Shown: positions 16,983 through 53,048 of the stretch, in pieces
Numbering within the stretch: position 1 is the stretch's first letter
Layout: every line of letters begins with the position of its first letter
Assembly (NCBI GenBank): GCA_040390125.1
Contig: JAZJYZ010000001.1
Span: 70,428 to 134,427 of the forward strand
Direction of reading: 5' to 3'
DNA length: 64,000 bases
Source: Patescibacteria group bacterium
GTDB taxonomy: Bacteria; Patescibacteriota; Minisyncoccia; Phycocordibacterales; Phycocordibacteraceae
Translations under genes and position numbers: made by a program
The notes under the pieces: model-generated
What the model saw: the letters and a program-made list of their open reading frames with translations, nothing else
Database searches by the model: none
What the model was told of the DNA's origin: nothing

Positions 16983-16986
16983 TTTT

Positions 16987-36668: not shown

Positions 36669-37886
36669 CTACTCGTCTCGAGTGAGGTCGAGCGACCATA
36701 AAGTGAGGTCGTTTTTATTCATGAATGTGACGTATTTTTGATCAGGAGAAATCACTGGGTTTATTAGATCAACTGGTGTGCCTGCTATTTCTTCAAGATG
36801 TCCTAATGACTGAGCTGTGCTTTCAAGGGGACGAATAATCCATGCGGAGTCATTGCGGGCAATTTTTCCTAAGAGCCAGTCGTCAGGAAGTGCAATGCTA
36901 CCTGCCATGAGAGGATCTGAAACCCCGCAGAATACAAGAGGAGCTTCCTCGGAAATCCACGCACACTTTGTTGCAAGCGTTCCCAAAGGCGATGCATAGG
37001 TTTGTCCGGTTTTAGTATCCACCATTCCCAAAGTAGTGCGAATGCCTACACCACTGCTATAAAGCACGTAACGCCCTCCCGGGCTTGGTAGTGCGAGTAG
37101 CCCCGGTACGTCACCTATAATTTTTGTCAGAGTGCCATTGGTTTTGATTTCATATAAAAACCCAGAGATTCCGGAGGATGGTGCACTTGCTATAAAGAAA
37201 CGCTCTCCGCCAGCTAAGGGTACCCATGAGCGAATGGGAGACAATAGAACTGTTCGAGGTTTAGCTCCATCAGGTTGCATGAGCTCTATGTGTGAACCGC
37301 CCGAGGTTTCGCTCACGGTAAGCATGGTTAATCCGCTTTTTGCCACTGCAGAACGCTTGAATCCTTTGAGCGGAAGCGTATACACGGACTGCTGAGAACT
37401 TGTTGCATTTAAAACCGCGAACGCATTAACGATTGTTTCTGTGTCGGGCAATGTACGGAGTAGCAGTGTGGAATCGGTAATCGCAATCAAATCTTGTATT
37501 AGGGGGATGGTGGTGTTGGAGAGTCGTACTTCTGTGTATGAGTCTACTGGTGTTTCAAATATATGTCCCGTCGCTCTTTCCATGAAGCGAATGTGCGAAG
37601 GAGTGGTGGTACTCGCTTCCGAGGCAAACCATGATCCTGCCGTTGGGCGACTGCTCACTTGGCGGAGGCGTGTAAGTACTTTTTGTACGGAAACTTCTTC
37701 GGTGCTCCCTTCAGGTGTTTTTGTTGCAGGAGTTCCAGCTCCGAATGGGAAAAATGCACTGAAAAAATCTCTTGGTGCTGGGGTGCCGCCATTCGGTGTT
37801 TTTTGGGCAGTGAAAAAAAAGTACCCCGAAACTAAGACAATGCCGAAGAGAAAGAGAACGACAATGAGGATGAGACGTCTATTCAT
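36669..37886 (-). CDS. Secreted beta-propeller (TolB/PD40-like) protein, hypothetical
   Basis: 405 aa with an N-terminal TM/signal and PD40-like segments (SPGGRYVLYSS, SPDQKYVTFMN). Confidence 0.45.
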   Translation of the reverse strand: MNRRLILIVVLFLFGIVLVSGYFFFTAQKTPNGGTPAPRDFFSAFFPFGAGTPATKTPEGSTEEVSVQKVLTRLRQVSSRPTAGSWFASEASTTTPSHIRFMERATGHIFETPVDSYTEVRLSNTTIPLIQDLIAITDSTLLLRTLPDTETIVNAFAVLNATSSQQSVYTLPLKGFKRSAVAKSGLTMLTVSETSGGSHIELMQPDGAKPRTVLLSPIRSWVPLAGGERFFIASAPSSGISGFLYEIKTNGTLTKIIGDVPGLLALPSPGGRYVLYSSGVGIRTTLGMVDTKTGQTYASPLGTLATKCAWISEEAPLVFCGVSDPLMAGSIALPDDWLLGKIARNDSAWIIRPLESTAQSLGHLEEIAGTPVDLINPVISPDQKYVTFMNKNDLTLWSLDLTRDE

Positions 37887-37898
37887 AGAAGCTCAAAG

Positions 37899-38597
37899 TT
37901 ATTTAGGGAGGGCACAGCACTGGTACCCTTCCGCAAGAGCCGGGCAACACTGGTTGTTTATTCTGGAGTAACCGACATCCATGAGTCGTTCACACGAGGC
38001 CCCGGTGGGCACAGCTCGAGGATTCTTAAATTGCGTACACGCCACCGTTACTTCCGCAGCTTGGGACACTGTTGGAACGGTACAGATAATAACAGACTCA
38101 TTTTTTGTAGCAGTTCCACCTTGCTTTTTGCAGTCTGCTTCGCTCGTTGCAGGAATTGTCGTTCGAGCGTCACTTTCAAAACTGCCCAGCATCGTTAAAT
38201 CTTTGGTAAGTGCATCCAGGTTAAGAATATTGGGGTTAATCACGTGCAAAATTACATATGCCAAGAGAAGCAGGATAAGACCCATCGCCGCACCCTGCAG
38301 GCCCTCCATCGCAGCCTGCTTTTTACCGACGACATCTGATGCCATGTATTTGAATCCGTCGAACGTAATCATGATGACCCCAAGGATTGCCGCAATGGCA
38401 ATCGTGAGCCCAAACACCGCATTCAGGTAGCTGGTGAGCGAGGTGCTGGAATCAACGGCACCACTTCCAGTTGGGAGTGGCACTGAGACGATTGGTTGAA
38501 ACTGAAATTGCGGAGCTTTGTCTGCCGCTAGTGCAGGAGTTATTCCTCCGAGGAGTGAAGCGAAGAGAAATGCGAGGGTTATGAGTATGCGGGACAT
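37899..38597 (-). CDS. VirB2/TrbC-like pilin candidate with a Cys-rich C-terminal extension
   Basis: Signal peptide (...ITPALAADKA), then two hydrophobic helices separated by a short loop (LTIAIAAILGVIMITF / AAMGLILLLLAYVILHVI), then a tail with 8 Cys. I chose the internal Met start, which gives a 4-nt-type overlap with the upstream gene. Confidence 0.4.
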   Translation of the reverse strand: MSRILITLAFLFASLLGGITPALAADKAPQFQFQPIVSVPLPTGSGAVDSSTSLTSYLNAVFGLTIAIAAILGVIMITFDGFKYMASDVVGKKQAAMEGLQGAAMGLILLLLAYVILHVINPNILNLDALTKDLTMLGSFESDARTTIPATSEADCKKQGGTATKNESVIICTVPTVSQAAEVTVACTQFKNPRAVPTGASCERLMDVGYSRINNQCCPALAEGYQCCALPK

Positions 38598-38598
38598 A

Positions 38599-39567
38599 TT
38601 AAAATGTAAGTTGGAATGATGTGTTTGCATGTTCTAAGAATTTTTTTATGTTTTCAAAAGATACACGCACCGTGTGTGCGCCACTTCCAGTTCCAACTTT
38701 TCTAAATGTTGCACTCTGTGGCTTTGTTGGATCGACAGTAAAGGGCACCGTGTCGAGAGTCCATGTGTATGATACGTCACCGGTGTTCTCTATGGAAAGA
38801 GGGTACGCAACAAATGATACTTCGTCTCCAGTTAGTGGAAACAATGCTGTGTGTGCCTTATCAAATCGCACGCCAAGTAGTGGCGCATCCTCGTATATAA
38901 CCAGAGATGGCGTTTGAGGCTGCACCGTGAGCGACTGCTCGCCAGCAATGGAGCCGTCTTGCGTGCTCACCACAACGGAGACAGTGAATGCGCCTCCGAA
39001 GCTGGGGGCTGTGACCACCGCACTCCATTTACCGTACCCAGATTGCTTTTGCAAAGGTACGTTATTTACTTTCCATGAATATACCAATGCGTTTGAAGGG
39101 GCCTCAGCTCCGTTTATTACCAAATGCGGTATAGCCATGAGTGTAACGGAACTGTGACCATTGGGGAGTGGGCGTCCGATGTAAAGAGCTGGCGTGTATG
39201 TGTTCCCTTCCCAGAGGATATCGACTGACGCTGGTCGAATAATGGTTATGCCGTCCGCTCGAGCGGAGTTGTTTTCGACCGCAATAACACGAATGGTTTC
39301 CGTCGTGCCCAAGCCATCGAGAATAATGGCAATTGAGGTGTGGTCAATTCCTTGGTCAACAACCTCACCGTTCAGACTCCATACGTATGCGGTGGTACCT
39401 ACTTCCCTGCCTGGATCAGAGACCGTCAATGTAACCTGGCTTCCTGGTCGTGGGTGTGCAGGGTTCACCCCTATTTCGAGCTCGGAGCTGAACGTTGGCA
39501 GAATTTCCGCCGAAGCGAAGACTGGAGCCAGGAATAGTAAAGAAAGCGCAAATGTCGCCCGAAGCAT
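38599..39567 (-). CDS. Secreted beta-rich protein, hypothetical (T4SS-like cluster)
   Basis: 322 aa with an N-terminal signal peptide (MLRATFALSLLFLAPVFASA). Confidence 0.45.
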   Translation of the reverse strand: MLRATFALSLLFLAPVFASAEILPTFSSELEIGVNPAHPRPGSQVTLTVSDPGREVGTTAYVWSLNGEVVDQGIDHTSIAIILDGLGTTETIRVIAVENNSARADGITIIRPASVDILWEGNTYTPALYIGRPLPNGHSSVTLMAIPHLVINGAEAPSNALVYSWKVNNVPLQKQSGYGKWSAVVTAPSFGGAFTVSVVVSTQDGSIAGEQSLTVQPQTPSLVIYEDAPLLGVRFDKAHTALFPLTGDEVSFVAYPLSIENTGDVSYTWTLDTVPFTVDPTKPQSATFRKVGTGSGAHTVRVSFENIKKFLEHANTSFQLTF

Positions 39568-39738: not shown

Positions 39739-41550
39739 CTAGCTGTTTCCCTCTCTTTTCTCCCGTGCTATCGAAAGCAACTGGGATGGGTCTGAGGTAA
39801 TTATCTGGTCTTCTGTGTAGGAGGCGATGATTTTTATGGCTACGTGCTTAAGACCTGCGAAGAAAATACCTTCACCGACGTCAGATTCTAGAAGCAGGTA
39901 TTTCTCCTCCTCGGTTAAGTTGAAGGTTTTTTGCACGGCCTCTATGGATGTGGGTGACTGCTTGAGAAGAATCTGAATAGAAGAGTTGGTGAGCATCGGC
40001 AAACCGTAGGGAGACTTCAAGAAGTCTTCTACGTCTTGAGTAATAGTGGCGAGCCCCAGATAGTATTTTCTTCCACGTTTCGCCATACCATAGAGGAATG
40101 CAGCAGTGTCTTCAGATTTCATCATCCACCACGCCTCGTCAATGACGAGCAGACGTTTACGCAGGTCCTTCCTGACCGCATTCCAAATAAAGTGCGTAAT
40201 GATATACATCGCAATCGTTTTTAGCTCGTCTTCCATGTTTCGAACTGAAAACGCCACGAACTTTTTGTTGATGTCTACGTTTGTTGGTCGGTTAATGAAG
40301 CCAGACCACGTACCTTTTGTGTATTTTGTAACTCTCTGCACCAAGGACTCGCTTCCTTCCATGCCTGCAAGCACAAGTTCGAAGTCAGACAAAAGCGGCG
40401 GCTCCATGTTGGTGAAGTCGTTGGCACCAGTGATGTCTTTAAGTGCGTACGTTTCTGTAATGGCCCGATCAATAATTGCATCTTCTTCAGGGGTAAGACC
40501 GCCAAGCATCAACCGAAACAATCCCACTAAGTTGATTATGTTTGATCGCAAGATGTCAGCCGGCGATTCATCTTCACGTGGCACCGGCAAATCGAAAGGG
40601 TTGATGCGGTTTTCTGAAGACAGTGAAATATTGAAAAATCTTCCACCAACGGCGTTTGCCAGGTACTCGTATTCGCTTTCAGGGTCTATGACGATGACTT
40701 CAGTGTCGAACATGAGCGACCGCAATATTTCAAGCTTCGTACCATATGACTTTCCGGAGCCAGATTTCGCAAAGGTGACGGAGTTATAGTTTTCCAAGGA
40801 AAATCTGTCGAACAAGATTAACGATGAGTTGTGTCTGTTAATGCCGTACAGAATTCCCTTGTCGCTTGTGAGGTCGAATGAAATGAATGGGAAGAAGCTT
40901 GAAAGCGGAGCAGAGTTCATTTTTGAGTTAACGGCGAGCTGGTCATCCCCTATCGGTATGACGCTTCGAAATCCCTGCTCTTGCTGGAAGAGAGCTGGTT
41001 TTATGTATACGAGTTTTGCGTCAAGAATCGAACGCATTTCGGCCTCTGTTTTGTCGAGCTCATCTTGGTTCGTGCCATAAATCGATATATAAAGACCAAC
41101 ATCAAATATGCGTTCTTGTGCCTGCTGGAGTTGATCACGGAGTTGTTCAATGTCTTGGGAGGCCGTGTCGAGTATTGGGTCACGCACCATCCCCTTCTCT
41201 TGGCGTGTCATTCTTTGGCTTTGAACCTCGGCAACCTTTTTCTGTAGTTTTCGAAGGACTGCCGCAGTGTCGATTGGATGGATGAATATAGAAATATCCA
41301 AAACCCTGTCACGGTTAATGATTGGTGCAAACCATGTGCCAGACAAAAAGCGAGGATATGAAATCACGTAAAAGGTACGCACCAGCTTGTCGCCCAAGTT
41401 CATCTCACGAGGAGTAATTTTGAGAGCTGACGGTGCAATAATGTCAGCAAAGTCTAACTTCGCCGCTTCGTAAATGTCTTTTGGCAAAAACGGCGTCAGT
41501 GCGTCTTTCTTTTTTGTTCCTTTCCCAGTGAATGCGTCGAAAATTCCCAT
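39739..41550 (-). CDS. Type IV secretion/conjugation ATPase, VirB4/TraC/TrbE class (C-terminal ATPase portion)
   Basis: 603 aa with Walker A FAKSGSGKSYG, DPESEY and Walker B LLVIDEAWWMM. The overall pattern matches VirB4-family ATPases. Confidence 0.7.
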   Translation of the reverse strand: MGIFDAFTGKGTKKKDALTPFLPKDIYEAAKLDFADIIAPSALKITPREMNLGDKLVRTFYVISYPRFLSGTWFAPIINRDRVLDISIFIHPIDTAAVLRKLQKKVAEVQSQRMTRQEKGMVRDPILDTASQDIEQLRDQLQQAQERIFDVGLYISIYGTNQDELDKTEAEMRSILDAKLVYIKPALFQQEQGFRSVIPIGDDQLAVNSKMNSAPLSSFFPFISFDLTSDKGILYGINRHNSSLILFDRFSLENYNSVTFAKSGSGKSYGTKLEILRSLMFDTEVIVIDPESEYEYLANAVGGRFFNISLSSENRINPFDLPVPREDESPADILRSNIINLVGLFRLMLGGLTPEEDAIIDRAITETYALKDITGANDFTNMEPPLLSDFELVLAGMEGSESLVQRVTKYTKGTWSGFINRPTNVDINKKFVAFSVRNMEDELKTIAMYIITHFIWNAVRKDLRKRLLVIDEAWWMMKSEDTAAFLYGMAKRGRKYYLGLATITQDVEDFLKSPYGLPMLTNSSIQILLKQSPTSIEAVQKTFNLTEEEKYLLLESDVGEGIFFAGLKHVAIKIIASYTEDQIITSDPSQLLSIAREKREGNS

Positions 41551-41552
41551 AT

Positions 41553-42227
41553 TTATTGAGTTTCAGCTGGCTGTTCCATAACAATTGGTTTTTCTAATTC
41601 GCCCGGATTAAATTCCTTATACAAAAGTTCAATCACCTCTTCAGTGCCAAGGGGTACTGTTCGCACTCCCGTGCGGGCAAGTCCTTGCTCCACCGTTCCC
41701 ATTCTTTGCTCAAGTTGAGTGCGGTGCTCTTCAAATCCTATGGCCCCTTTATCTTGCCTCGCAGAAAGATCAGTTTTCCCGAAAATTTTGTTTTGCACAG
41801 TCTTTTTAATATCAAGCATTGGAGGAGCATACGGAATCACTATAAAGAAGTGCTTGCTCATGATGTTGGCACGTTCAGTGAATGTTTTTATGAATTCTAT
41901 ATATTCACGCACCTGTATTTTCATGAGCTCCTCTGTTTGTGCTTTGAGACGCTCTTCAAGGAGTGCGATATAAGGACGGATGTCCAGTTTTCGAGATTGA
42001 ATGAAAAACTGTACGCTGAAATCGAGCGAATTCATGAAGCTCTGAAATTGCGAGAGTATCGCATTCTGCTCGTCTTCGGATTTAAGTGCGAAGTTCACGG
42101 ATGACGCTAGCATCACCCCCACGAGCGTTCCGCTTTTCATTACCATCACGCCCCCACGCACTTCTTTCACCGGAACGAAGTCCTGTGCCGCTTTTGTTTT
42201 TGCTGTTTTTTCGTCTCCGCCTGCCAT
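41553..42227 (-). CDS. Protein encoded immediately upstream of VirB4 with a 4-nt overlap; possibly a separately encoded VirB4 N-terminal domain
   Basis: 224 aa. 224 + 603 is about the size of a full VirB4 (around 800 aa). ATGA overlap. Confidence 0.4.
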   Translation of the reverse strand: MAGGDEKTAKTKAAQDFVPVKEVRGGVMVMKSGTLVGVMLASSVNFALKSEDEQNAILSQFQSFMNSLDFSVQFFIQSRKLDIRPYIALLEERLKAQTEELMKIQVREYIEFIKTFTERANIMSKHFFIVIPYAPPMLDIKKTVQNKIFGKTDLSARQDKGAIGFEEHRTQLEQRMGTVEQGLARTGVRTVPLGTEEVIELLYKEFNPGELEKPIVMEQPAETQ

Positions 42228-42249: not shown

Positions 42250-42630
42250 CTAGGTGCTAGCTTTAAGGCTAGCAATCACAGCGACAAGCATTCTTGAAAC
42301 TTCTTCGAGCATTGCCGTCGATTCATTATAGTCGATTTTTTCTCCGTATTCTAAGCGTTTAGCCATTTCCAACTGTGTTTCTAGCTCTGAAGTAGATCCT
42401 AATGCGATGTGTAAAAATTGTGCAAAATCTTTTCTGGTACCACGTGATCTACCTTCGGCTATATTGGAAGGAATAGAAACAGCACTTCTTCTCATTTGAG
42501 AAATAAGTCCAAATTTTTCTTCCGATGGAAACTTTGAAGTAAATTTGTAAATAACCATTGCTAAATCTACCCCCTTTTGCCAAACAATCAGGTCTTTATG
42601 AGAACGTATTTGAGTTTTAGTTTTTTGCAT
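42250..42630 (-). CDS. Four-helix-bundle protein ('23S rRNA intervening-sequence protein' family), paralog 1
   Basis: 126 aa with LIVWQKGVDLAMVIYKFTSKFPSEEKFGLISQMRRSAVSIPSNIAEGRSR...FLHIALGSTSELETQL, the family signature. Confidence 0.7.
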   Translation of the reverse strand: MQKTKTQIRSHKDLIVWQKGVDLAMVIYKFTSKFPSEEKFGLISQMRRSAVSIPSNIAEGRSRGTRKDFAQFLHIALGSTSELETQLEMAKRLEYGEKIDYNESTAMLEEVSRMLVAVIASLKAST

Positions 42631-42674: not shown

Positions 42675-43112
42675 CTACTGTTGTTTCTTGTCACTATATA
42701 CACTCTCCTTTATATCCAAACTCCACGCCAGATCTTTTATCTTGTTCGAGGTTGCTGAGGGCACATATTTTGAAGGATCTTCAGCACGTATTTCTCCTGG
42801 CAGTATGATTTCGTCAGGCAGTACCGTTTTTGATTGCTTCTTTTCCCAAATGTAGAGTTTAGTGCGAAATAGGTATTGAAAACCTGCCTCAAGAGCATTG
42901 ATGAGTGGTCGGTCATTTATTTTATAGAATGCGAGTCCAGCACCTAGTGCCGCTACGGGTCCGCCTATAAGGATGGCAAGCCAATGGGGAGCAATGAGCC
43001 ACATGGCAAACAAGAACCCACCTCCTCCAATGAGATAGATGAATTGCACTGCGGTTAAGGGACCGAAGATTTTATCTTCAACTTCTACGAATTGTGGTAC
43101 TTGGAATTGCAT
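42675..43112 (-). CDS. Small membrane protein, VirB3/PrgI-like candidate
   Basis: 145 aa with 2 TM helices near the N-terminus. Its size and position upstream of VirB4 fit. Confidence 0.35.
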   Translation of the reverse strand: MQFQVPQFVEVEDKIFGPLTAVQFIYLIGGGGFLFAMWLIAPHWLAILIGGPVAALGAGLAFYKINDRPLINALEAGFQYLFRTKLYIWEKKQSKTVLPDEIILPGEIRAEDPSKYVPSATSNKIKDLAWSLDIKESVYSDKKQQ

Positions 43113-43171: not shown

Positions 43172-43564
43172 TTACGTATGTGCTTTTGTTTTCAATACTG
43201 CGATAAGTTTTGAAAGCATGAGTTTAAGTTCAAGGGTTTGTTGGCGTAAATTGACACATTCTTTATTTGAGGAAAATTTGAGTTTTTCGGCTATAACAAT
43301 TTGAGTATCTAACTCCGCAAGTGAACCAAGTGCAATGTGCAAAAACTGTATAAAGTCTTTAGTGGTATTACGTGATTTCCCTTCAGCAATATTTGATGGA
43401 ATAGAAACCGCTGACCTCCGCATCTGAGAGATAAGTCCAAATTTTTCATCGGACGGATATTTTGATGTCGCAATATATATTTTTTCTACAAGGTTGATTG
43501 ATTTCTGCCACACCAATAAATTCTCATGCGAAGCTACACGGCCACCGTTATCAGAGTCACTCAT
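43172..43564 (-). CDS. Four-helix-bundle protein ('23S rRNA intervening-sequence protein' family), paralog 2
   Basis: 130 aa with LLVWQKSINLVEKIYIATSKYPSDEKFGLISQMRRSAVSIPSNIAEGKSR...FLHIALGSLAELDTQI, over 60% identical to paralog 1. Confidence 0.7.
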   Translation of the reverse strand: MSDSDNGGRVASHENLLVWQKSINLVEKIYIATSKYPSDEKFGLISQMRRSAVSIPSNIAEGKSRNTTKDFIQFLHIALGSLAELDTQIVIAEKLKFSSNKECVNLRQQTLELKLMLSKLIAVLKTKAHT

Positions 43565-43629: not shown

Positions 43630-44436
43630 TCATTCCACTGGTTCTCTATACGGGTCCACTCCTCCTTTATATATTGGTTTTGCTGATGTTGGCGACGGTG
43701 GGGGCGTTGGTGCTTTTTCTGCGACCGGTGTTTCTTTTGCAGGCTGAACGCTCTCCGCAGGAGCTGGTTCAGATTTAGGGGTTGTTTCTAGCCCGAGTTT
43801 TTGTAGGGCGATGTTTGGCTGTATTGGAGAGATACGAGGTGCGCTCGAGTCAGTCTCTCTTGGTTTCAGTTCTATTGAGTTGTCATGCTCTGGTACTGGA
43901 GTTTTTTCAGCTTCAAGGAGTGCTTCTGCAAGCTCCTTGTCCGCCTCCTCTTGCAATTTTTGAGCCTCCTCTTGCTCGGCTTTTTCTAGTGCCAACAGTT
44001 CCGGGTCATCGTCTGCCAGGTACTCTATTCTTTCTCTACGTGCATTTTCGGCTATTTCTTCTGCGGTAAGTTCTCGTTCGGGTTCGGAGACTCCCTCCGC
44101 AACTTTCTTAGGTTCGAGGATACCCTCTTTGAGGCGTCTTTTTGCTTCCTTAAATAGGCGGTCATTCATGTCAGCAACGAGTTCATGCGTTATTGCGTTC
44201 GACAGCTCCGGCATCCATTGGTGCAGATTTGTTTCAAGGGCCGACTCTGCTTCCAATCCCATCAACGTGACGTTGCCAATTTCGCTTATTATCATAAGCT
44301 CCCGTAAATCCAGGTTGAACTTTTTTTGTATCCCAATATAGATATTTGTTAAGGCTTCTGTACCTAGGAAATCAGAAACCGACTCAGGTAGTTTTTTTCT
44401 CGCTTCATCTTTTTCTTCGTTGGTGTGGGGTTTCAT
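43630..44436 (-). CDS. Acidic coiled-coil protein with a Pro/Thr-rich C-terminus, hypothetical
   Basis: 268 aa. E/K-rich heptad-like region, then PAPAESVQPAKETPVAEKAPTPPPSPTSAKP. Confidence 0.45.
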   Translation of the reverse strand: MKPHTNEEKDEARKKLPESVSDFLGTEALTNIYIGIQKKFNLDLRELMIISEIGNVTLMGLEAESALETNLHQWMPELSNAITHELVADMNDRLFKEAKRRLKEGILEPKKVAEGVSEPERELTAEEIAENARRERIEYLADDDPELLALEKAEQEEAQKLQEEADKELAEALLEAEKTPVPEHDNSIELKPRETDSSAPRISPIQPNIALQKLGLETTPKSEPAPAESVQPAKETPVAEKAPTPPPSPTSAKPIYKGGVDPYREPVE

Positions 44437-44439
44437 AGG

Positions 44440-47400
44440 TTATGTGGTTGGTGGTGGCAGTAGTGTATTGAATTCATCTGAATCTACAAATTGTTGCACA
44501 TCTCTACTCAATGCAACATCAGGTCGCCTACGGAATTCTTGCAGTGTTCTTCTAATATACTGCAGTCCTGTAGTATCACCTCTGCTTTGTGCCTTGCTTA
44601 TGATTGCACGAAGTGCTGACGCCCTTGGTGCTGCAGCTACTGCGTTTGGAATAAATTCATACGGCACCTGAGCCCACTGTTCATCCGTGCGACCCTCCAT
44701 GAATTTGCGGGTACTCTCCAATACTTGCGGGGTAAAGCGTGCTGCGGGGTCGATATTTCTAAAATGATCTTCCCATGTCGTTGGTGTTACTAAGTTACCC
44801 GCAGTAGGAGTGTCTGTGGAGGTGTTTACTAAACTACTTGCTACAGGTTCAGTCCCTGTGTATGTTTGTCCAACTAAACGAGGTGCATCAATGTCACTTT
44901 GGCCTCCTGGCATTCGTGCTTGTGAGCCCGACAGTGACATATTTGCGGATGGTTCCTCGGCATCCTCTGGCTCGCTATCGGCTTCATCAGGTCCTGATAC
45001 GTTTACATCACTATTATTTGGGATGATTTGTGGTTCGTAGATTGGCTCGCTTCTGGTTATTGTTGGGGGTTCTATTGTCTGCCCACCCCCGTCCGGACTA
45101 CTACCTCCCGGGTTATTCCCGTTATCGCCCCCATCATTTCCGTCGTCTGGATCATCATCTTCGTCGTCCCCATCATCACGGTTATCATTCATAGAAGCTT
45201 GTCCAGGTACAAATTCAGTCGTGAATGGGTCAGAAGGTAGATTATTTTTCCCATACCAGTTTCTACGGATTTTGTTGATTTCTGCCAATCGCTCTTCGTT
45301 TGGCCAACCGAATTGTTTTTTGATGTCGGGGTTTGTTAGGGCATTTGCAATGAAGGTGTCGTCGCCGTGCATAAGCATATTTTCCCATACTGCCGTTTTC
45401 TCGGCTTTATCCTGTCCTGAAAAGAGTGCTGTCAATCTGTCCGCATCTTTTACACCGAATACGGTCGAGATAGTGTGCGCCTCTCTTTTACCTAAGAGAC
45501 CCATTTCGAAGTCATTTTTCCCATCATGCCATCCTGGGATACCCGTTGGATCGTTGGGGTCATACCCACCTTCAATCATTTTCATCCTGTCGAAAATGAT
45601 ATTCAAAGGATCTGAACCAACCACTCCTCTAATTGCCTCTGCTTTTTCCTGTGGCGTTTTCTTTCCTACAAGGGCCGCGGCAATTTTTTTGTCATACTCT
45701 TTTCTTGCGTCACGAATTGCTCGCATCCTTTGAGCTTCGTTTTTGATACTGCTGAGTTCTGTTTTTTTGCCGTCCGGTGATGTTAGTGTTAAATTTTTAT
45801 TTAATGTAGCTTCAGCAAAATCTCGATCTCGCTTTGCTATCTTATAAGTGCTTACAGTGACCCCAGACAATTCACCGTCACCGTAGGCCCTCTCGGCACC
45901 CTCATAGAGATCGATTGTCTTTTGTCTATCTGCCATGAGACTTGTTCGACGTTTATAACCTCTCTCGACACCGTCATATTCTACGGTGCCGCCTACCTCT
46001 GGGACCATATTCTTGTTTTTTCCAAGTCCAAGTGCTAGCAAGGCCAAGCTGTATTCGTCACGCATGTCGGTCATCGGTGAGCGTTTCATACTGCCTGCTT
46101 TTCGTTGTTCAGTGGAAGAAAGAAGTTTGTCCCGTTTGATTTCAATTGCTGCGGTACTGCTGGTGCCAAGCCATAACTCCGGCATGGCACGCAGTTGTGC
46201 ACCGGTCAGTGCATCGTGTCCAGTACCAATGTGGTCAGCTTTGATGAGTGCCTTCAGCTCGTCATTTGGGAGGTATTTTGACTGATAGTTGTACGGAACC
46301 AATATGCGCCTACCATACTCCTCGCTACCGCGGATAAGCTTGCCATCCTCTACATCTTTATTTATATCCTTAATCATGCCTACAAACTCACCTGTGCGGA
46401 GTCCCCACATTGCATCTTTGATGTCATGTCTTATGGAATGATCATCTTGGAGTGCTTTAAATTGCGGGGTTGAAAGTAGCGTTGAATACTGAAGAAGTGA
46501 TTTAGGGTCCTTGCGGTATTCACGTTTCAAGAATTCCGGAGAAAACACGTCAACAATACTTTGGGCTTCGCCTCGCAATTCACGTGATTTGAAATGGTTA
46601 TCCAAACGTTCGTAGTAGCCCCAGTCCCCGTTGCTTTCATCGGCTGCGGCACCGTTAACGCCTTTTTTCTTTTTGCCGACCCCTTGTTTGATGCGAAGTG
46701 TAATTTCGTCGTCGTTTTCCAATCTATCGAGACCGGTATCTTTGTCTTTCACCATTATTTTTGCTTTATCAAGACCACCTCGAGCTCGCAATTCTTGCAG
46801 GTTTTCCCACCGCATCTTGCCATTTTTGTCTTTCACTTTCTGAAGGCCAGTACGTGCCAACACCTCCTCGTCGGTCTCCATTTCCCCGTTCTCTTTCCTT
46901 ATTTTGTGATCACGCAGTGCTTGCCTATTCCAAAATTCGTCTTGTGTCTCCACTCTGTCTTTAGAGAGTTTTTGTCCGGTCGTTGGGTCTATCTCCCCTT
47001 TCTTAAGTGTTTTTGGTTTGAAGCCGTCATTGAATTCTCTCTGGAAGTTTCTTTGTGCTTTTTCTAGAGCTGGACGTTTATCTGCGAGTTCTTTTTTTCT
47101 CTCCTCGTCCTTTTTAATTTCGTCTATGGCGATTTCACGAGCTTCTCTTTCTTTTTTTACAGTTTCATAACCTTTGAATCCTTCGTGTTTTTTGCCGTCT
47201 GCGTCGGTGTAGGCGCCGAACTTTTTGTCTGCAAGTTTATCCAAAACCTGAGCTTTTATAACTCGATCAGCACCTGTTCTCATAAGAAATTTTCCAAGGC
47301 GTGTCTCTTTTGCTATGTATTCGTCAAATTTATATGTAGCTCTTTCAGCCACTCTCCCCACAGTATTTCGTGCTGCAACAGCTCCAATCCAACTGGTAAG

Positions 47401-48660
47401 GCCAATGTAACCGTTTGGCATCCAGTTGGTCCATTTACCCGCAGCCTTGTATACATCGCCGAGCCTTTTTGCTTGTTCACTTAAGCCTTTCGCCATTGTA
47501 AGCGACTGTTGCATAAAAACAGTCGCCACTATGAATGTCAGCATGGTGCCAAGAAGCGCCTCGAGCCCAACTGCATTCACGCTAAAGAGTGCCCCCTTAG
47601 AGCCTTCTAGAATGGTGAGTGAAATACCTACAAGAAGAAAATATACCGGGGCAAAAAATGACTGACTGAAAATATCTTCCCACCACTCCTTTGCGTATTT
47701 GTTGACACGAGGTATCGCCATTGCCGCTATGCCAACGGGCGAGGTGATTATCAAAAACACCAGTGCAACGAAGCGTCCCACGAGCAGGCCTATGACTGAT
47801 AAAAAGAGGAAAATGGTTGTACTTTCAAAACCTATGAGGAAAATATTAAAGACGAGATGGTCGAGAGTGCTTAAAACAGTGAGACCGGTGGTATTGAATA
47901 TGCCCTGCTCGGGAGAGCGGAGCTTTTGATAATCTGCAATCTGCATAAATCTGCTGGCGATGTTGCACTTGAAGAATGTTTTATCTACACATGATTCCGT
48001 GGTGATGACACTTTCATATATTTTCGTTGCAACAAAATTTGATGAATCAATGATGGCTCCGGCAAAGAAGTAGCTGAAATTGATGAGGAGTGCTCCAATG
48101 ATGAGGCGCACAAGCCACTTTTGTACGTTTATATTAGGCAGATGGAGGATCGTCCCGATGGCGGTAGCGATGAGTCCGCCAATGATGCCGATGTTTGCGA
48201 GGTCGCGCATTATCCCCCACGCAATGCGTACCCCCACAGCGTCTGAAGAAGTGACGAAACGCCCCATCTGTACGACTGTGGTATTTACAACGAAGTTCAT
48301 AAGTGAACCCACAAAAGCCAGGACGATACTCATTACTATGAGTATGATTTCGGTAAGTTGAACTAGTCCTTTTAGAAGATTGTCAAAAGGTTGCAGAAGC
48401 GTGTTTGCGATAACCATTTTTGCTCCAGAAGCAAACTTCTCCACTCCACTAGGAGAATCGTCCGAAGATGTGGGTTCCGCTGTGGTGGCAGCCGCAGAAG
48501 GTGTTGCAGGAGCTGGAGTCGTTGCTGAGGCAGGTGCAGTAGTTGCAGGAGGAGGTACAACTGTTGCCGAAAGAGCACTGAGAGGCAGGGCTCCTGCAGT
48601 AAGGAAAACGAGAACTCCAAAAAGTATTAGGAGTTTTTTCATGCCTAATAGTTCTTGCAT
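44440..48660 (-). CDS. Giant VirB6/TrbL-like polytopic membrane protein with an extension of about 1000 aa
   Basis: 1406 aa. Signal peptide plus Thr/Pro/Ala-rich linker, then about 6-8 TM helices (residues about 100-400), then a long hydrophilic K/E/D-rich region ending in an acidic low-complexity tract (DNRDDGDDEDDDPDDGNDGGDNGNN). The alternative start MKKLL at 48642 would abolish the overlap with the upstream gene. Confidence 0.5.
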   Translation of the reverse strand: MQELLGMKKLLILFGVLVFLTAGALPLSALSATVVPPPATTAPASATTPAPATPSAAATTAEPTSSDDSPSGVEKFASGAKMVIANTLLQPFDNLLKGLVQLTEIILIVMSIVLAFVGSLMNFVVNTTVVQMGRFVTSSDAVGVRIAWGIMRDLANIGIIGGLIATAIGTILHLPNINVQKWLVRLIIGALLINFSYFFAGAIIDSSNFVATKIYESVITTESCVDKTFFKCNIASRFMQIADYQKLRSPEQGIFNTTGLTVLSTLDHLVFNIFLIGFESTTIFLFLSVIGLLVGRFVALVFLIITSPVGIAAMAIPRVNKYAKEWWEDIFSQSFFAPVYFLLVGISLTILEGSKGALFSVNAVGLEALLGTMLTFIVATVFMQQSLTMAKGLSEQAKRLGDVYKAAGKWTNWMPNGYIGLTSWIGAVAARNTVGRVAERATYKFDEYIAKETRLGKFLMRTGADRVIKAQVLDKLADKKFGAYTDADGKKHEGFKGYETVKKEREAREIAIDEIKKDEERKKELADKRPALEKAQRNFQREFNDGFKPKTLKKGEIDPTTGQKLSKDRVETQDEFWNRQALRDHKIRKENGEMETDEEVLARTGLQKVKDKNGKMRWENLQELRARGGLDKAKIMVKDKDTGLDRLENDDEITLRIKQGVGKKKKGVNGAAADESNGDWGYYERLDNHFKSRELRGEAQSIVDVFSPEFLKREYRKDPKSLLQYSTLLSTPQFKALQDDHSIRHDIKDAMWGLRTGEFVGMIKDINKDVEDGKLIRGSEEYGRRILVPYNYQSKYLPNDELKALIKADHIGTGHDALTGAQLRAMPELWLGTSSTAAIEIKRDKLLSSTEQRKAGSMKRSPMTDMRDEYSLALLALGLGKNKNMVPEVGGTVEYDGVERGYKRRTSLMADRQKTIDLYEGAERAYGDGELSGVTVSTYKIAKRDRDFAEATLNKNLTLTSPDGKKTELSSIKNEAQRMRAIRDARKEYDKKIAAALVGKKTPQEKAEAIRGVVGSDPLNIIFDRMKMIEGGYDPNDPTGIPGWHDGKNDFEMGLLGKREAHTISTVFGVKDADRLTALFSGQDKAEKTAVWENMLMHGDDTFIANALTNPDIKKQFGWPNEERLAEINKIRRNWYGKNNLPSDPFTTEFVPGQASMNDNRDDGDDEDDDPDDGNDGGDNGNNPGGSSPDGGGQTIEPPTITRSEPIYEPQIIPNNSDVNVSGPDEADSEPEDAEEPSANMSLSGSQARMPGGQSDIDAPRLVGQTYTGTEPVASSLVNTSTDTPTAGNLVTPTTWEDHFRNIDPAARFTPQVLESTRKFMEGRTDEQWAQVPYEFIPNAVAAAPRASALRAIISKAQSRGDTTGLQYIRRTLQEFRRRPDVALSRDVQQFVDSDEFNTLLPPPTT

Positions 48661-50504
48661 TGATTCAGCTCTGTGTTTGCATCCTCAGTCATACCATCCA
48701 AGAGTGTTTTTGATGCGTCGCGGTCGTTGGTAAGCTGTGCCAAGTCATTTTCAGTGTGGAGAGTGCTGTACGAGCGAAGGCCATTAAACGCATCCGAAAG
48801 TGCATTAATTTCAGTGGCAGTCGTTGCACCTGCAACTTGCTCTTGCAGAGCTTCAAGTGATGCGACTGTCCCTTCTGAGTCATCAAGTGCATTCGATTCT
48901 ATCTGTATCTGGGGCTCTATAACAGTGAGAATTGTTGATGATGCCTGGTTCATCTTTAGTGTTGCACCAGAAAGATCAATACTTGTTGTCCCTCCTCTGG
49001 TGACGAGCGTTTTGTAGCAAGCCTGCACTTCGCTATATGTGTCTTTCGTGTTTTCCAAGTTCCACAGCATGTCGGCAAGGGTCACTTGATATGCGTACTC
49101 AACTTCGAGTGCATTGTTTACGCTGTTTCGAAGGCTCGTTTTCGCTGGTGTGATTGCAGAATTCTGACTCGTGCCTGCAACGGTGTCGAGATATGAGCCT
49201 TTTCCTGTAGAGCTTTTTTCTGAGAGCCCCACCAAGCCTGTTAGGCTCGTGAGAACCTGCTGGCCGATTTGTGCAAACAGAGGATCAACCAACTGGCCAA
49301 TTTGCGTTGCACGTGCCTGCTGGTCGTACCCAGCATTCACTGCTCTTTGTACTACGCTGTTGTTAATTGAGCTTGGACTTTTGATTATGAAATGTTCACA
49401 CTGGTTCAAAGGCTTTCCTTCCCCGCCTTCATCGTTGCACGTAATGGCAGGGTAGATGTCTGATGTTTTTGTTATTTCTTCTTGTACTGCTAACCTATTT
49501 GCTGTGCGTGTGTACAGCAGCGAGTTTGCAGCAGAATACGCACCGAGATCTGTGCACTGCGGATTGTATGCCATAATATCTGCAAAGTTTTCAAACGTAG
49601 TGAAATGTTTTAGGTCTACATTTTCGATTGGGCATTTCAGTGCATTTTTATTTTCAGCTTTATTTATTTCATCGAGGTATTGTTGCACTTTGTGTGGGTT
49701 GTTGACTCCACTTTCAGGCAGTTCATTTATCAGGTTTGTAAATACTGTGTTTGTCAAAGAAGCAATATCATCTCCGGGGTTTTGAGAATACCCTGGTGTG
49801 CCACCGTTTCCAGTGTTTAATTGGTTTAAGACATTCTTACTATTTTCAGCTGCGAATTGCTGGCTTACTTTACTCACCAATACGTTTTGAACGCACGTTA
49901 CTTCAAGTTGAGTGTCTTGATCGGCTTGTATCTTTTGGGTGTTTCCTTGAATTTTTTGCGTGGTGCTTCTCACTTGACTGTCGTTTACCGGAACACCCCC
50001 TAAAAACCCGCTTACAAGCCCTAAAGGTCCACTTGTAAGAGCACTTAATCCTCCACCACTAATAAGACTAGTGACAGAACTACCAATATTGCCAAGCCCG
50101 TTGCCGCTTAACAGATTTCCAGCAATATTTCCCAAAGATGAGCTTATGCTTCCACCACTACCACCAAGTAGACTAGAAATGATTTGACCGGTTTGACTAC
50201 CTCCGGTAATTGCACTAATTACCCCGCCGGTATTTCCGCTTCGAAGGCTACTGAGTGCAGAGCTCCAGTTAGCGTCTTTCACTAGGTCTTTAAAGGCAGA
50301 GCTTATTCCTCCAAGGGAACCCGATGATTTCGAATTACAATTTGCAAGTGCAGAATGAGATGAAGTATCAAGCTCTACATCCGTTGGTGCACCTGGGAGG
50401 AGATCAACATTATTTTGAACAGTTTCTGCTTGTATCACTTCCTCTGCGACCGCAGACATTGGCACAAGAGCAATTACCAGAATCATGGCTAAAATTTTTT
50501 TCAT
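48645..50504 (-). CDS. Secreted Gly/Ser-rich protein, hypothetical (possible surface or pilus-associated component)
   Basis: 619 aa with a signal peptide (MKKILAMILVIALVPMSAVA) and a GGSGGSISSSLGNIAGNLLSGNGLGN low-complexity block. Confidence 0.45.
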   Translation of the reverse strand: MKKILAMILVIALVPMSAVAEEVIQAETVQNNVDLLPGAPTDVELDTSSHSALANCNSKSSGSLGGISSAFKDLVKDANWSSALSSLRSGNTGGVISAITGGSQTGQIISSLLGGSGGSISSSLGNIAGNLLSGNGLGNIGSSVTSLISGGGLSALTSGPLGLVSGFLGGVPVNDSQVRSTTQKIQGNTQKIQADQDTQLEVTCVQNVLVSKVSQQFAAENSKNVLNQLNTGNGGTPGYSQNPGDDIASLTNTVFTNLINELPESGVNNPHKVQQYLDEINKAENKNALKCPIENVDLKHFTTFENFADIMAYNPQCTDLGAYSAANSLLYTRTANRLAVQEEITKTSDIYPAITCNDEGGEGKPLNQCEHFIIKSPSSINNSVVQRAVNAGYDQQARATQIGQLVDPLFAQIGQQVLTSLTGLVGLSEKSSTGKGSYLDTVAGTSQNSAITPAKTSLRNSVNNALEVEYAYQVTLADMLWNLENTKDTYSEVQACYKTLVTRGGTTSIDLSGATLKMNQASSTILTVIEPQIQIESNALDDSEGTVASLEALQEQVAGATTATEINALSDAFNGLRSYSTLHTENDLAQLTNDRDASKTLLDGMTEDANTELNQCKNY

Positions 50505-51253
50505 GTTTTCTTTTGGAGCGTTACGATTGCGACCGCAAGAGTATCCATGCTGTTGGTCACGTACACTTGTGCTTTGTTAAATGTGTCCACATCGGTGAGT
50601 GCTTGTATTGGATCGCCTTTCCAATTTGCCATGTTCTCAACGGCTTTTGCTAGGGCCCCAACGCTTTTTACTGCTTCGAGATGTTGTGGTGCAAGTTTTA
50701 CGGGAACCTCCATTACAAGGAGTGATGCGGCAATTCTCTTATAGAGTTCTGCCGTCTCTTGCAGTGCAGGTGTTCCGTGTATGTTGCCCGCCGTGACGCT
50801 TTCTGTGAATACGGCAACTTCATATTTTTTTACCAAAGAAGCCTGACTCATAATGACGGCAAATAGTTTGACGTAGACATCTAAAGACGCTGTGTTGCTT
50901 GCATTCAAGTCAGCGAGGTTGATGATTGGGACTATCGCAGGAGTGGTGATGTGTCGCTTTGCCAAGTCTGCCAGCATTGCGTCTCTTTCAAGGGCCGTAA
51001 ATGTGCCACTTTGAGCGAGGTCAAGGTAGTTGTTATACAAATCCGTAGAAAGCGACTCGGATGTATTGAGATTAGAAGAAGCGTTTAAGGCAGTGCTCGA
51101 CACTTTTTGCCAATCCCCCAAATTTCCTTCTCCGAGGCGTGAGGCGTCTTTTGCAGGTTGGTTTTGAAAGTAATAGAAAGAAGCACCGCCTATCATAAGT
51201 AGCGCAAATATCACTGCCAAAAAAGACCCACCCCATTTTTTTCGGGTTTCCAT
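50501..51253 (-). CDS. Bitopic membrane protein, hypothetical (VirB8-like topology?)
   Basis: One N-terminal TM (FLAVIFALLMIGGASFYYF) plus a domain of about 200 aa. I chose the internal Met (METRKKW); the longer ORF reaches 51355. Confidence 0.35.
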   Translation of the reverse strand: METRKKWGGSFLAVIFALLMIGGASFYYFQNQPAKDASRLGEGNLGDWQKVSSTALNASSNLNTSESLSTDLYNNYLDLAQSGTFTALERDAMLADLAKRHITTPAIVPIINLADLNASNTASLDVYVKLFAVIMSQASLVKKYEVAVFTESVTAGNIHGTPALQETAELYKRIAASLLVMEVPVKLAPQHLEAVKSVGALAKAVENMANWKGDPIQALTDVDTFNKAQVYVTNSMDTLAVAIVTLQKKT

Positions 51254-51338
51254 TCTACCCTCAAGTATAACCCCACGTATAAAGGACGCTTGTCCTTTAT
51301 ACGTGTGCGTGGGGATTAGGACGGGATATAGTGTACGT

Positions 51339-52223
51339 ATGATTTCACTCCGCACGAATCTAAAAACTCACCGCAGTTTCACCGCCGTTCTTTTTTTGCT
51401 CGCACTTATAGTGATACCCGTTTCTGCACTGGCAATCAGTCAAGCACCAGTGAAACAAGGCTCTTTCGGAGGCACGGTACTTCAAATTCTTCCGTGCACC
51501 AACATTTCTGGCTCTCTCATAATGGTTTCTCCCTCTGGTTTTCAGTTTGTACACCGTACCAATGTCCCAAAATTACCTTTTTTAGGGAAAATGCCAACTC
51601 TTGGACAAGAGGTTGGGGGTGTATTGCTCCCCTCTTTTGTTGAATGCACTGTGGTAGAGGCGGGTGAGTCAAAGACTTTCTTAAAACAACCTGCTCTTTA
51701 CTACTCTGCCAAGCGATCTAGCAATACAGCTACCCCACCATCTCAAGGGTCGTCCTCGGGTTCTGGCAGTTCGTTTTCATCAAGTAACCTTTCATCACTA
51801 TTCAACACGCTCAAAAACCCACTTTCCTCTCTGTTTTCTAATGGAGCTGGAAGTTTACTCTCCAATGGCATGGCGAATGTTGGTGCCCATAGTGTGCTCA
51901 CGTCCTCCGCCAGTGGCGTCGCTGCCACAAATGCTGTGGCGGGAGGATCGGGAATTACTTTGATACCGTTTGGCGGGATAGTGCTGAGTCCTCCTGTTCC
52001 TTGCACCACCCCGCCGGGGGCATATATGGTAGTTCTTGGGCCACCGAGCCCAGGTAGTTACATGTACGTTCCTGTAGTTACAAAAAGTTATTTGTACGGA
52101 CCTCCAGTTATTCCCGGTCAATGGGTTTTGGGACAAGCGGTGCCTGGGGTGTGCGTGGTAGGTACTGTACCAACTCCGGTCATGTTAATAATGACTCACG
52201 GCACAAGCCTTTTGCCAATATAA
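51339..52223 (+). CDS. Secreted Ser/Gly-rich protein, hypothetical
   Basis: Signal peptide (AVLFLLALIVIPVSALA), an SSGSGSSFSSSNLSSLF tract, and a Pro/Val-rich C-terminus. Confidence 0.4.
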   Translation: MISLRTNLKTHRSFTAVLFLLALIVIPVSALAISQAPVKQGSFGGTVLQILPCTNISGSLIMVSPSGFQFVHRTNVPKLPFLGKMPTLGQEVGGVLLPSFVECTVVEAGESKTFLKQPALYYSAKRSSNTATPPSQGSSSGSGSSFSSSNLSSLFNTLKNPLSSLFSNGAGSLLSNGMANVGAHSVLTSSASGVAATNAVAGGSGITLIPFGGIVLSPPVPCTTPPGAYMVVLGPPSPGSYMYVPVVTKSYLYGPPVIPGQWVLGQAVPGVCVVGTVPTPVMLIMTHGTSLLPI

Positions 52224-52232
52224 TTTCTCTCT

Positions 52233-53048
52233 TTATTTATTACTCGACAGTGCCTCGGTGATTTTGAGCCACATATCCAAGGGCACATCTTCTGCACGGG
52301 TGTTCTTTGTAAGTTGAAATCTCTCCCACGCTAGTTCAATAGGTACCGCAGGAAATGCTTTTTTCAAATTCCCCAACAGCGTTTTTCTCTTTTGTGCAAA
52401 GCCTGCTTTCAGGATTGAAAAAAAACGTTCCTCAGAAATAGTTTTAAAATTTTTCCCTGAAATTTCAGTGATTGCAAGAATTGCCGAATCCACAGACGGT
52501 GGTGGATTAAAGCTCCCTCTCGAAACGGTCTTCACATATTTGGGAGTACCGTACACTTTTACTGACAGCGAAAGAATACTTTCTTTTTTGTTTCTTGCGA
52601 TTCTTTCGGCAACTTCTTTTTGAACGAGGAACGCTAATGCGACCGGTTTATTTTTTGCAGAGAGTGCACTTCGCACGAGCTCTCCCGTGATGTAGTACGG
52701 AATGTTAGCAGCAATCTTGTATTCGCCTTTAGGAAAAAGTGTGTCGGGCGTGAGTTCCCTCGCATCCCCTTCGTAAATCGTAAATCGTAACTCTTTAATC
52801 TCAAGTGCGAATCTTTCACGAAGCACTTCAATCATTCCCGGATCTTTTTCAACTGCACTCACCTCTGCCCCAAGTGCCAAAATTTCTTTTGTGAGCATTC
52901 CTTTGCCCGGCCCTATCTCCAGTACTCGGTCTCCTTTTTGAATAGTTGCAGCAAGAGCTACCGCTTTTGCGATTCCAACATTGGTAAGCAAATGTTGCCC
53001 GAGCTTTGCTCCTGGGCGTTTTTTATGTGATCGAGGGGATTTCATCAC
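52233..53048 (-). CDS. rsmA: 16S rRNA (adenine1518/1519-N6)-dimethyltransferase
   Basis: 271 aa with GQHLLTNVGIAKAV...VLEIGPGKGMLT. Confidence 0.85.
   Translation of the reverse strand: MMKSPRSHKKRPGAKLGQHLLTNVGIAKAVALAATIQKGDRVLEIGPGKGMLTKEILALGAEVSAVEKDPGMIEVLRERFALEIKELRFTIYEGDARELTPDTLFPKGEYKIAANIPYYITGELVRSALSAKNKPVALAFLVQKEVAERIARNKKESILSLSVKVYGTPKYVKTVSRGSFNPPPSVDSAILAITEISGKNFKTISEERFFSILKAGFAQKRKTLLGNLKKAFPAVPIELAWERFQLTKNTRAEDVPLDMWLKITEALSSNK

Follow-up and report, generated by a model that had tools for sequence, protein, structure and literature searches.

The open reading frame (ORF) at positions 44440-48660, on the minus strand, belongs to a 64,000-nucleotide (nt) stretch of DNA from a Patescibacteria group bacterium (contig JAZJYZ010000001.1, positions 70,428 to 134,427). 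We call this whole stretch the window, and coordinates below refer to it. The gene probably encodes the VirB6/TrbL-type membrane subunit of a chromosomal, monoderm-type Patescibacteria type IV secretion system (T4SS). It is of the kind known as extended VirB6, and its extension probably lies in the cytoplasm.

The T4SS of Patescibacteria is the sole T4SS reported to be essential for the growth of its owner (PMC10633639, PMC12857230), and in a saccharibacterium it is essential for epibiotic growth (PMC10633639). Reviews describe the role of extended VirB6 domains as "not yet known" (PMC12857230), and the VirB6 extension is not discussed in the main text of PMC12102498 or PMC10633639, nor do these papers cover how it is built from modules or its split-gene variants. 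Apart from what we report on the extension, the gene is an expected component of a system that has already been described. What is new here is a helical module of orphan fold in a small clade, the fused and split architectures in which it occurs, and a pattern of cysteine exclusion; nothing is categorically new. In one clade within the Candidate Phyla Radiation (CPR), the extension is an autonomous, confidently folded module and not low-complexity junk.

The membrane core

Residues 91-395 (amino acids, aa; 47476-48390) form a polytopic TrbL/VirB6-like core. Kyte-Doolittle hydropathy identifies seven hydrophobic segments within aa 99-387 and a signal-like segment at aa 10-28, with about 1000 hydrophilic residues following the last hydrophobic segment. 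An AlphaFold model of aa 1-450, built from a 64-sequence alignment, has a mean predicted local distance difference test score (pLDDT) of 79, and its core is a helical bundle at mostly 90-97. When this model was compared with the PDB using Foldseek, the top five matches were all chains of TrwI, the VirB6 protein of R388 (7o3v, 8rtd, 8rt9). These matches, over about 286 aligned columns at 15-19% identity, have a probability of 1.00 and a template modeling (TM) score of 0.53-0.59 when normalized to the target; those ranked next have probabilities of 0.5 or less. Alignment of the family profile to TrwI with hhalign places aa 266-396 on TrwI residues 139-270 (E = 1.1e-3).

The relatives of the protein, which are 35-46% identical to it with E-values to 1e-173, provide a transitive connection to the TrbL family. 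Four of them score above the Pfam TrbL gathering score of 25.9 bits (P0003, 32.3; P0005, 32.6; P0017, 28.8; P0031, 27.0), and the match covers the equivalent of aa 180-383. Of 33 alignment members that were scanned, 17 match TrbL at E <= 0.01, the best at E = 8.9e-8. On the strand of the VirB6-like ORF, the genes for PrgI, TrsD and VirB4 follow 1.3-4.7 kb downstream, and the ORF itself is present as a single copy in the operon and window.

Several comparisons weigh against this assignment. The Foldseek E-values for TrwI are modest, at 7.5e-3. Residues 1-450 compared directly with Pfam TrbL (PF04610) give E = 3.4 and 7.8 bits, below the gathering score of 25.9. No sequence-level match in the PDB was found, as phmmer and the 64-sequence profile returned only K/E-rich low-complexity noise. 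The full-length protein also has no match in Pfam, NCBIfam or PHROGs. We nevertheless accept the protein as a member of the TrbL/VirB6 superfamily because of its fold, its transitive homology and its gene context, although its own profile score falls short.

Extended VirB6 proteins, as defined by Alvarez-Martinez and Christie (2009), have at least five hydrophobic helices together with at least one large hydrophilic domain in a central or C-proximal position (PMC12857230). The protein fits this class, having its core at aa 91-395 and a hydrophilic region at aa 396-1406. An earlier reading of the window, made from the sequence only, had proposed a VirB6-like protein with a polytopic membrane core and an extension of about 1000 aa. 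The TrwI and hhalign matches, TrbL in relatives and the T4SS neighbors bear this out, as the seven hydrophobic segments and the modeled helical bundle do for the core, and the literature agrees that extended VirB6 proteins are a recognized class (PMC12857230).

The core is preceded by a signal-peptide-like N-terminus (aa 1-32; 48565-48660) with a K-K, a hydrophobic run and ALSA, reaching a hydropathy of 2.36 at aa 10-28. A hydrophobic N-terminus is present in 59 of 63 relatives. It is followed by a Pro/Ala/Thr-rich tail (aa 33-90; 48391-48564) that is predicted to be disordered (pLDDT 45-53) and is probably extracytoplasmic.

Integrity of the reading frame

The extended VirB6/TrbL-like subunit is encoded by one uninterrupted ORF of 1406 codons that remains open across 4.2 kb. 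The first ATG, at 48660, creates a 16-nt overlap with the upstream ORF. The ATG of Met7, at 48642, lies two bases past the stop codon of that ORF. The true start is probably Met7, because eight relatives align by BLAST from the equivalent of that residue; the protein would then have 1400 aa.

A long ORF in low-complexity DNA could result from mis-assembly or from the false fusion of two genes, which the sequence-only reading had itself named as a condition that would refute it. The source genome is metagenome-assembled, and some relatives encode core and helical module separately. However, an identical protein is deposited in NCBI ("hypothetical protein V4449_00685", from a Patescibacteria-group metagenome-assembled genome (MAG), on a 748,944-bp contig), and Logan assemblies also hold the identical 1406-aa sequence. 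At least ten relatives of 1278-1463 aa, among 63 compared by BLAST, are collinear with the protein over all junctions; for example, P0002 spans aa 7-1146 and P0005 spans aa 99-1396. AlphaFold produces a continuous chain through aa 420-1150, and the DNA repeats are trivial, at 47 nt and 49 nt. Given the identical NCBI protein and the collinear relatives, the ORF is real and mis-assembly is very unlikely, with a chance that we regard as negligible. The protein is the one member of its 90% cluster, and metagenomes scanned with a degenerate DNA anchor yielded no contig.

Architecture of the extension

Conservation across the 63 relatives falls into three tiers. Residues 100-450 are found in all and aa 450-1140 in 15-30, while aa 1150-1406 can be aligned in few. 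The AlphaFold model made for aa 420-1150 from 33 sequences reaches a mean pLDDT of 83 and a predicted TM score of 0.76. On the basis of this model, most of the roughly 1000-aa extension is predicted to be folded and modular, with short low-complexity stretches only.

The extension begins with K/R-rich juxtamembrane helices (aa 396-497; 47170-47475) modeled at pLDDT of about 60-70. These lead into a single long E/K/R-rich helix (aa 498-546; 47023-47169) with pLDDT up to 93. This helix has 49 residues, 57% of them charged, with 23 opposite-charge pairs at i+3/i+4 spacing, and is probably a rigid spacer. The K/E-rich segment noted earlier from the sequence is evident here, as aa 501-600 contain 26 K+R and 26 D+E. 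Short hairpins and helices of lower confidence follow (aa 547-679; 46624-47022; pLDDT 36-78), falling below 50 at aa 657-676. Self-BLAST of the protein found no internal repeat in aa 540-700.

The central element is a conserved all-alpha domain (aa 680-1146; 45223-46623). The earlier description of the extension as low complexity is correct for the acidic and Ser/Thr/Pro-rich linker, but not for this domain, which is folded at pLDDT 82-98 over aa 680-1139 (about 460 aa) and is conserved in 15-30 relatives. Foldseek searches of the PDB and BFVD with the extension model found no fold relative at E <= 0.001. The best Foldseek matches, with a TM-score of about 0.1, were to alpha-solenoids such as importins and Scc4, and these were rejected as homologs.

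The helical module is real, folded and narrowly distributed in a small clade of Patescibacteria. With aa 420-1150 as the query, an exhaustive HMMER search of 1.84 billion cluster representatives retrieved 33 proteins only. A scan of 185,579 species-level genomes for the module found 9 loci, labeled Kaiserbacteria, Paceibacterota, Saccharibacteria or Patescibacteria. Neither the core nor the helical domain has a VirB6-like match by tblastn among 72,556 plasmids, where the sole match was a polyketide synthase gene, a chance match with E = 2.

After the helical domain comes a disordered low-complexity linker of about 140 aa (aa 1147-1290; 44791-45222), recognized by composition, in which a Gly/Asp/Asn acidic tract precedes Pro/Ser/Thr/Glu-rich sequence. 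The acidic tract itself, DNRDDGDDEDDDPDDGNDGGDNGNN, occupies aa 1159-1183 (45112-45186) and is followed by Ser/Thr/Pro-rich sequence, just as had been described from the letters of the DNA. The tract overlaps a weak tandem repeat at 45132-45178, where Tandem Repeats Finder reports an imperfect 21-nt unit in 2.2 copies with 80% matches and a score of 59. The DNA near 45150, previously called repetitive, does contain this array, but the array is marginal and no long direct repeats were found. A second weak 21-nt array lies at 48508-48556, in the region of the N-terminal tail, and the two arrays have 2.2-2.3 copies. At the linker position, relatives P0002, P0006 and P0013 have acidic Gly/Asp tracts and relatives P0003, P0005 and P0007 have Gly/Pro-rich sequence. 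Because these linkers are of low complexity and cannot be aligned, the acidic tract appears to behave as a flexible tether that drifts between species and not as a functional repeat array.

The linker does not end the protein. The sequence-only reading had the chain finish in a Ser/Thr/Pro-rich tail, but beyond the linker MAFFT and BLAST alignments reveal a conserved C-terminal domain of about 110 aa (aa about 1291-1406; 44443-44790). The motifs F.D, SD-DQI and STL are common to ten family members in the MAFFT alignment, and the domain has BLAST matches to P0005, P0017 and P0020. Some relatives stop straight after the helical domain.

Relatives in which the module is a separate gene

In two distant relatives, the helical module is encoded apart from the VirB6-like ORF. 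Locus L014 (3525-7851) has an 812-aa VirB6-like ORF (P0038), a stop codon, a 37-nt AT-rich spacer and then, in another frame, a 616-aa ORF (P0069) homologous to aa 622-1154. Locus L015 (3353-7779) has the same layout, with an 872-aa ORF (P0040) followed by a 592-aa ORF (P0068) corresponding to aa 562-1156. The spacers of the two loci are 29-37 nt long and AT-rich, and the next genes in both are a short ORF, PrgI and TrsD. The split point matches the boundary of low pLDDT at aa 657-676. The stand-alone module ORFs, P0068 and P0069, contain no hydrophobic segment at all.

We took L014 and L015 alone to be true splits. P0066 and P0074 were rejected as contig-edge fragments, and L016 was discarded due to a scaffold gap. 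The two split pairs share just 37-40% identity with one another, which indicates that the split is ancient and stable and no sequencing error. We infer that the stand-alone module is made in the cytoplasm, since it functions without a signal peptide, and that it binds VirB6 there by Rosetta-stone logic. A module that is either fused to VirB6 or encoded separately predicts a physical interaction between VirB6 and the module.

Which side of the membrane

The placement of the extension relies on charge, cysteine content, the split ORFs and precedent. Averaged over the family, the N-terminal tail has a net charge of -5.6 and about 3 Cys. Loops 1, 2 and 3 have net charges of -0.6, +1.8 and -1.8, and loops 5 and 6 have +0.5 and -0.3. 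The flank after the last hydrophobic helix is at +2.3, with 4.4 K+R in 28 aa. These values fit a protein with a signal peptide, its N-terminus outside and its C-terminus inside. Models with five and seven crossings both place the C-terminus inside, and five crossings suit the loops better. A simple seven-crossing topology is a poor match to the charge and Cys pattern of loops 1-3.

Cysteines are distributed unevenly in the family. The protein has only two Cys in 1406 aa, C224 and C232, a conserved pair (conservation of 89% and 67%) within loop 3 of the core (aa 207-261). Across relatives P0002-P0043, the extensions have 7 Cys in 40,756 residues and the N-terminal parts have 2-13 Cys each. Within the window, sampled proteins of cytoplasmic type contain 0.27% Cys, and predicted secreted proteins contain 0.85% (the pilin and the 619-aa protein of the operon have 8 each). 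There is also precedent, as the N-terminus of A. tumefaciens VirB6 is periplasmic and its C-terminus cytoplasmic (cited in PMC7648143).

The alternative is that the extension lies outside the cell, spanning the wall, exposed, or cleaved and released, where it would act as an adhesin or as part of an envelope-spanning conduit that leads to the host bacterium. The analogs would be Rickettsiales VirB6-3/-4 or the periplasmic C-terminal domain of F-plasmid TraG. Extended VirB6 C-termini are surface-exposed in Anaplasma (PMC7648143), and the sequence-only reading had favored an exposed or translocated extension on such grounds. Most hydrophobic helices of R388 VirB6 are in the periplasmic dome (PMC9259494), so the C-terminus could emerge outside. 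AlphaFold shows aa 262-305 as one continuous helix, and a six-crossing count would place the C-terminus outside. Patescibacteria also have no VirB5 or outer-membrane core to fill an extracellular role (PMC12102498). Finally, acidic and Pro/Thr-rich linkers are common among wall-spanning proteins; however, a Pro/Thr-rich tail is also found on the signal-less 268-aa neighbor, so such linkers are no mark of export here.

The K/R-rich flank past the last hydrophobic helix is a family-wide feature and argues against an external location. So do the nearly Cys-free extensions, which differ from the Cys-rich N-terminal tail, loop 3 and secreted neighbors, and the module ORFs of two relatives, which have neither signal peptide nor transmembrane segment. 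Tandem repeats of the Rickettsiales kind are absent. We consider an external extension unlikely, and the earlier proposal of exposure or translocation is not supported. Because of the K/R-rich flank, the near absence of Cys and the signal-less separate ORFs, we favor the cytoplasmic side, which these sequence patterns and the A. tumefaciens precedent together make probable.

A cytoplasmic extension has its own difficulties. Topology was judged by hydropathy, charge and Cys statistics alone, and monoderm VirB6-like proteins are described as being of uncertain topology (PMC12857230). Of the five hydrophobic helices of VirB6 in the cryo-electron microscopy structure of R388, just two lie within the membrane (PMC9259494), making helix counting unreliable. 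The T4SS itself could, in principle, also be the exit route of a stand-alone module that has no signal. On the functional side, no catalytic motif was seen in the extension, and the absence of a coupling protein is based on the 64-kb window alone.

Possible roles of the extension

By analogy with R388, the core would oligomerize at the center of the machine, above the PrgI/TrsD/VirB4 ATPase assembly (PMC9259494, PMC12624023). It would recruit VirB2-like pilins and form the membrane passage, as proposed for R388. The extension would stay on the cytoplasmic side, where the charged helix could serve as a spacer that keeps a distance between the helical domain and the ATPase barrel. That domain and the end domain, on its flexible tether, may be protein-binding platforms for partners, regulators or substrates. 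The acidic tract between them would be a plain flexible linker, its sequence drifting between species.

It is tempting to speculate that the helical module is the missing cytoplasmic platform for substrate docking or "coupling", with the tethered C-terminal domain capturing cargo or the ATPase. Such a role is attractive because no recognizable coupling protein was found for this system among the ORFs scanned in the window, although we think it rather improbable. If true, this would be a new way of selecting substrates in type IV secretion, and would provide a handle on what these epibionts inject into host cells.

Alternatively, either the helical module or the C-terminal domain might be T4SS cargo that is made in the cytoplasm, as a fusion with VirB6 or from an adjacent gene, and reaches the host bacterium once the disordered linker has been cleaved. 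The stand-alone modules have no Sec signal yet are encoded inside the T4SS operon, and the long flexible linker is followed by a small conserved end domain with an Arg-rich RRTLQEFRRRP. For Rickettsiales, it has been suggested that the C-termini of extended VirB6 proteins are released (PMC7648143), and the Patescibacteria T4SS is suspected to export proteins and not DNA (PMC10633639). On the other hand, the position of the module is fixed directly after the VirB6 core gene, as expected for a structural subunit, while effectors tend to vary and to be scattered. Nothing points to a cleavage site, the searches found no toxin or enzyme motif, and the fold has no match. We see only a slim chance that either domain is cargo.

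Comparison with known systems

The locus has the Patescibacteria T4SS arrangement, and the VirB6 of that system is the closest known counterpart of the protein. Patescibacteria T4SS loci contain VirB4, TrsD, PrgI, VirB6 and VirB2-like pilins, are often located beside dnaA, dnaN and ksgA, and usually have no relaxase (PMC12102498). As in the systems described by Quinonero-Coronel et al. in 2025 (PMC12102498), the partners here are VirB4, TrsD, PrgI/VirB3 and VirB2-like pilins. The locus is likewise chromosomal and near dnaA, dnaN and ksgA, with no relaxase or coupling protein in the scanned ORFs of the window.

A long VirB6 is not peculiar to this genome. In a supplementary table, Wang et al. 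(2023) list SEML1_0013 of Southlakia epibionticum as TrbL/VirB6-like, with domains out to residue 1085 that are annotated as a membrane domain, a helical hairpin and an "ARM repeat"-like C-terminal region (PMC10633639). Because these domains extend so far, long helical tails are not unique to the genome studied here. SEML1_0013 is also long, at 1085 aa or more, and has the same overall layout; the likeness to characterized Saccharibacteria proteins is one of layout and not of demonstrated sequence similarity. The helical domain described here is confined to a small clade labeled Kaiserbacteria, Paceibacterota or Saccharibacteria in MAG records.

TrwI/VirB6 of R388 (7O3V, 8RT9, 8RTD; PMC9259494) has the same fold of long hydrophobic helices as the core, and its gene neighbors virB3 and virB4, as does the gene examined here. 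TrwI has 342 aa with a short C-terminal tail and belongs to a diderm system of mating-pair formation type T (MPF-T) with VirB5 and VirB7-10. The Patescibacteria protein, in contrast, has a signal peptide that looks cleavable, a Pro/Thr-rich N-terminal tail and a 1000-aa C-terminal extension, and structure-based identity between the two is 15-19%.

The extended VirB6 proteins of Rickettsiales (Anaplasma VirB6-3/-4, Rickettsia RvhB6; PMC7648143, PMC2653234) also combine a VirB6 core with a very large hydrophilic C-terminal region, and these are likewise host-dependent bacteria with reduced genomes. Rickettsiales, however, have tandem arrays of paralogs in a diderm MPF-T system (PMC7648143), while the gene studied here is single copy in the window, with partners PrgI, TrsD and a CD1110-type VirB4. 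The Rickettsiales extensions are surface-exposed and contain long tandem repeats that vary between strains; the present extension has a folded domain and no repeat array. The earlier analogy with Rickettsiales-type proteins is not upheld, given the monoderm-type T4SS (PMC12102498), the folded, non-repetitive extension and the lack of a paralog array.

Gram-positive VirB6-like proteins (PrgH of pCF10, Orf15 of Tn916, TcpH of pCW3, ConG of ICEBs1) also belong to monoderm-type systems with PrgI and VirB4 as partners. They often have 700-850 aa and hydrophilic C-terminal regions. The C-terminal domain of TcpH has been reported to be cytoplasmic and required for transfer. Unlike the Patescibacteria locus, the Gram-positive systems have no pilin and are carried by mobile elements that have a relaxase and a coupling protein, and the Pfam matches in the present family are to TrbL.

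Operon and chromosomal neighborhood

The operon is on the minus strand and closely packed, with gene gaps of -32 to +171 nt. In order of transcription, it encodes a 284-aa membrane protein, a 619-aa secreted protein, the VirB6-like protein, a 268-aa protein, a PF05635 protein, PrgI/VirB3, a second PF05635 protein, TrsD, VirB4, a 322-aa secreted protein, a VirB2-like pilin and a 405-aa membrane-anchored protein. The virB3/virB4-type arrangement is kept in L001, L012, L014 and L015, and the same synteny is found in a relative whose VirB6 is 46% identical.

The PrgI/VirB3-like protein (42675-43112) matches Pfam PF12666 with E = 3.4e-8. The TrsD-like protein (41553-42227), which corresponds to the N-terminal part of VirB4, has 224 aa and matches NCBIfam TrsD (E = 5.9e-9) and also the VirB4_plasma N-terminal region (E = 9.2e-11). 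The 603-aa VirB4-like ATPase (39739-41550) scores 375 bits against NCBIfam conju_CD1110, which has a cut-off of 325 bits, has a Pfam TraG P-loop and belongs to the monoderm (MPF-FATA-related) kind of VirB4. The TrsD-like and VirB4 ORFs are 2 nt apart. An interpretation of the 224-aa and 603-aa ORFs as a broken VirB4 was rejected, as TrsD plus VirB4 is the norm in such systems (PMC12102498); the pair does not reflect a frameshift. The VirB2-like pilin (37899-38630) has 243 aa and matches Pfam PF18895 (E = 3.4e-7). It also has a Cys-rich C-terminal extension of about 110 aa with 8 Cys, including CC...CC motifs, which is unusual for a VirB2-type protein.

Five further operon proteins, all encoded on the minus strand, have no significant match in Pfam, NCBIfam or PHROGs and are probably lineage-specific T4SS components. 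The 284-aa protein (50501-51355) is membrane-anchored. The 619-aa protein (48645-50504) is secreted and Gly/Ser-rich, has 8 Cys, and its ORF overlaps the start of the VirB6-like gene. The 268-aa protein (43630-44436) is acidic and soluble, with a Pro/Thr-rich tail and no signal peptide or transmembrane segment; it is syntenic in every relative examined, and in L001, L012, L014 and L015 an equivalent ORF comes directly 3′ of the VirB6-like gene or, where the module is encoded separately, of the module ORF. The 322-aa secreted protein (38599-39567) has only a sub-threshold BiPBP_C match (E = 0.0019). The 405-aa protein (36669-37886) is membrane-anchored.

Two paralogous PF05635 genes, 55% identical to each other, are found inside the operon (43172-43564 and 42250-42630, both minus strand). 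PF05635, named "23S rRNA-intervening sequence protein", is a four-helix bundle that weakly resembles bAvd. The copy located between PrgI and TrsD shares 83% identity with the corresponding gene of the relative with the 46%-identical VirB6, and the other copy occupies a different intergenic slot in each of the two genomes. In relative L001 the copies are at 15545-15925 and 16642-17001. None of ten further short ORFs scanned in the window matched PF05635.

Flanking housekeeping genes are pcrA, ksgA (52233-53048), dnaA (33359-34705) and dnaN (32026-33126). Neither a relaxase nor a VirD4/coupling ATPase was found among the ORFs scanned in the window, which were about 50 of the 80 that have at least 120 aa. 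Elsewhere in the window are type IV pilus genes encoding PilM and a PilB/T2SSE-type ATPase with an MshEN domain (4830-5927, minus strand; 22609-24282, plus strand), which fits a pilus-dependent epibiotic CPR lifestyle. Finally, a 158-aa ORF with an HNH endonuclease domain (7211-7687, plus strand; E = 6e-5) lies among housekeeping genes, perhaps left over from a mobile or homing element.

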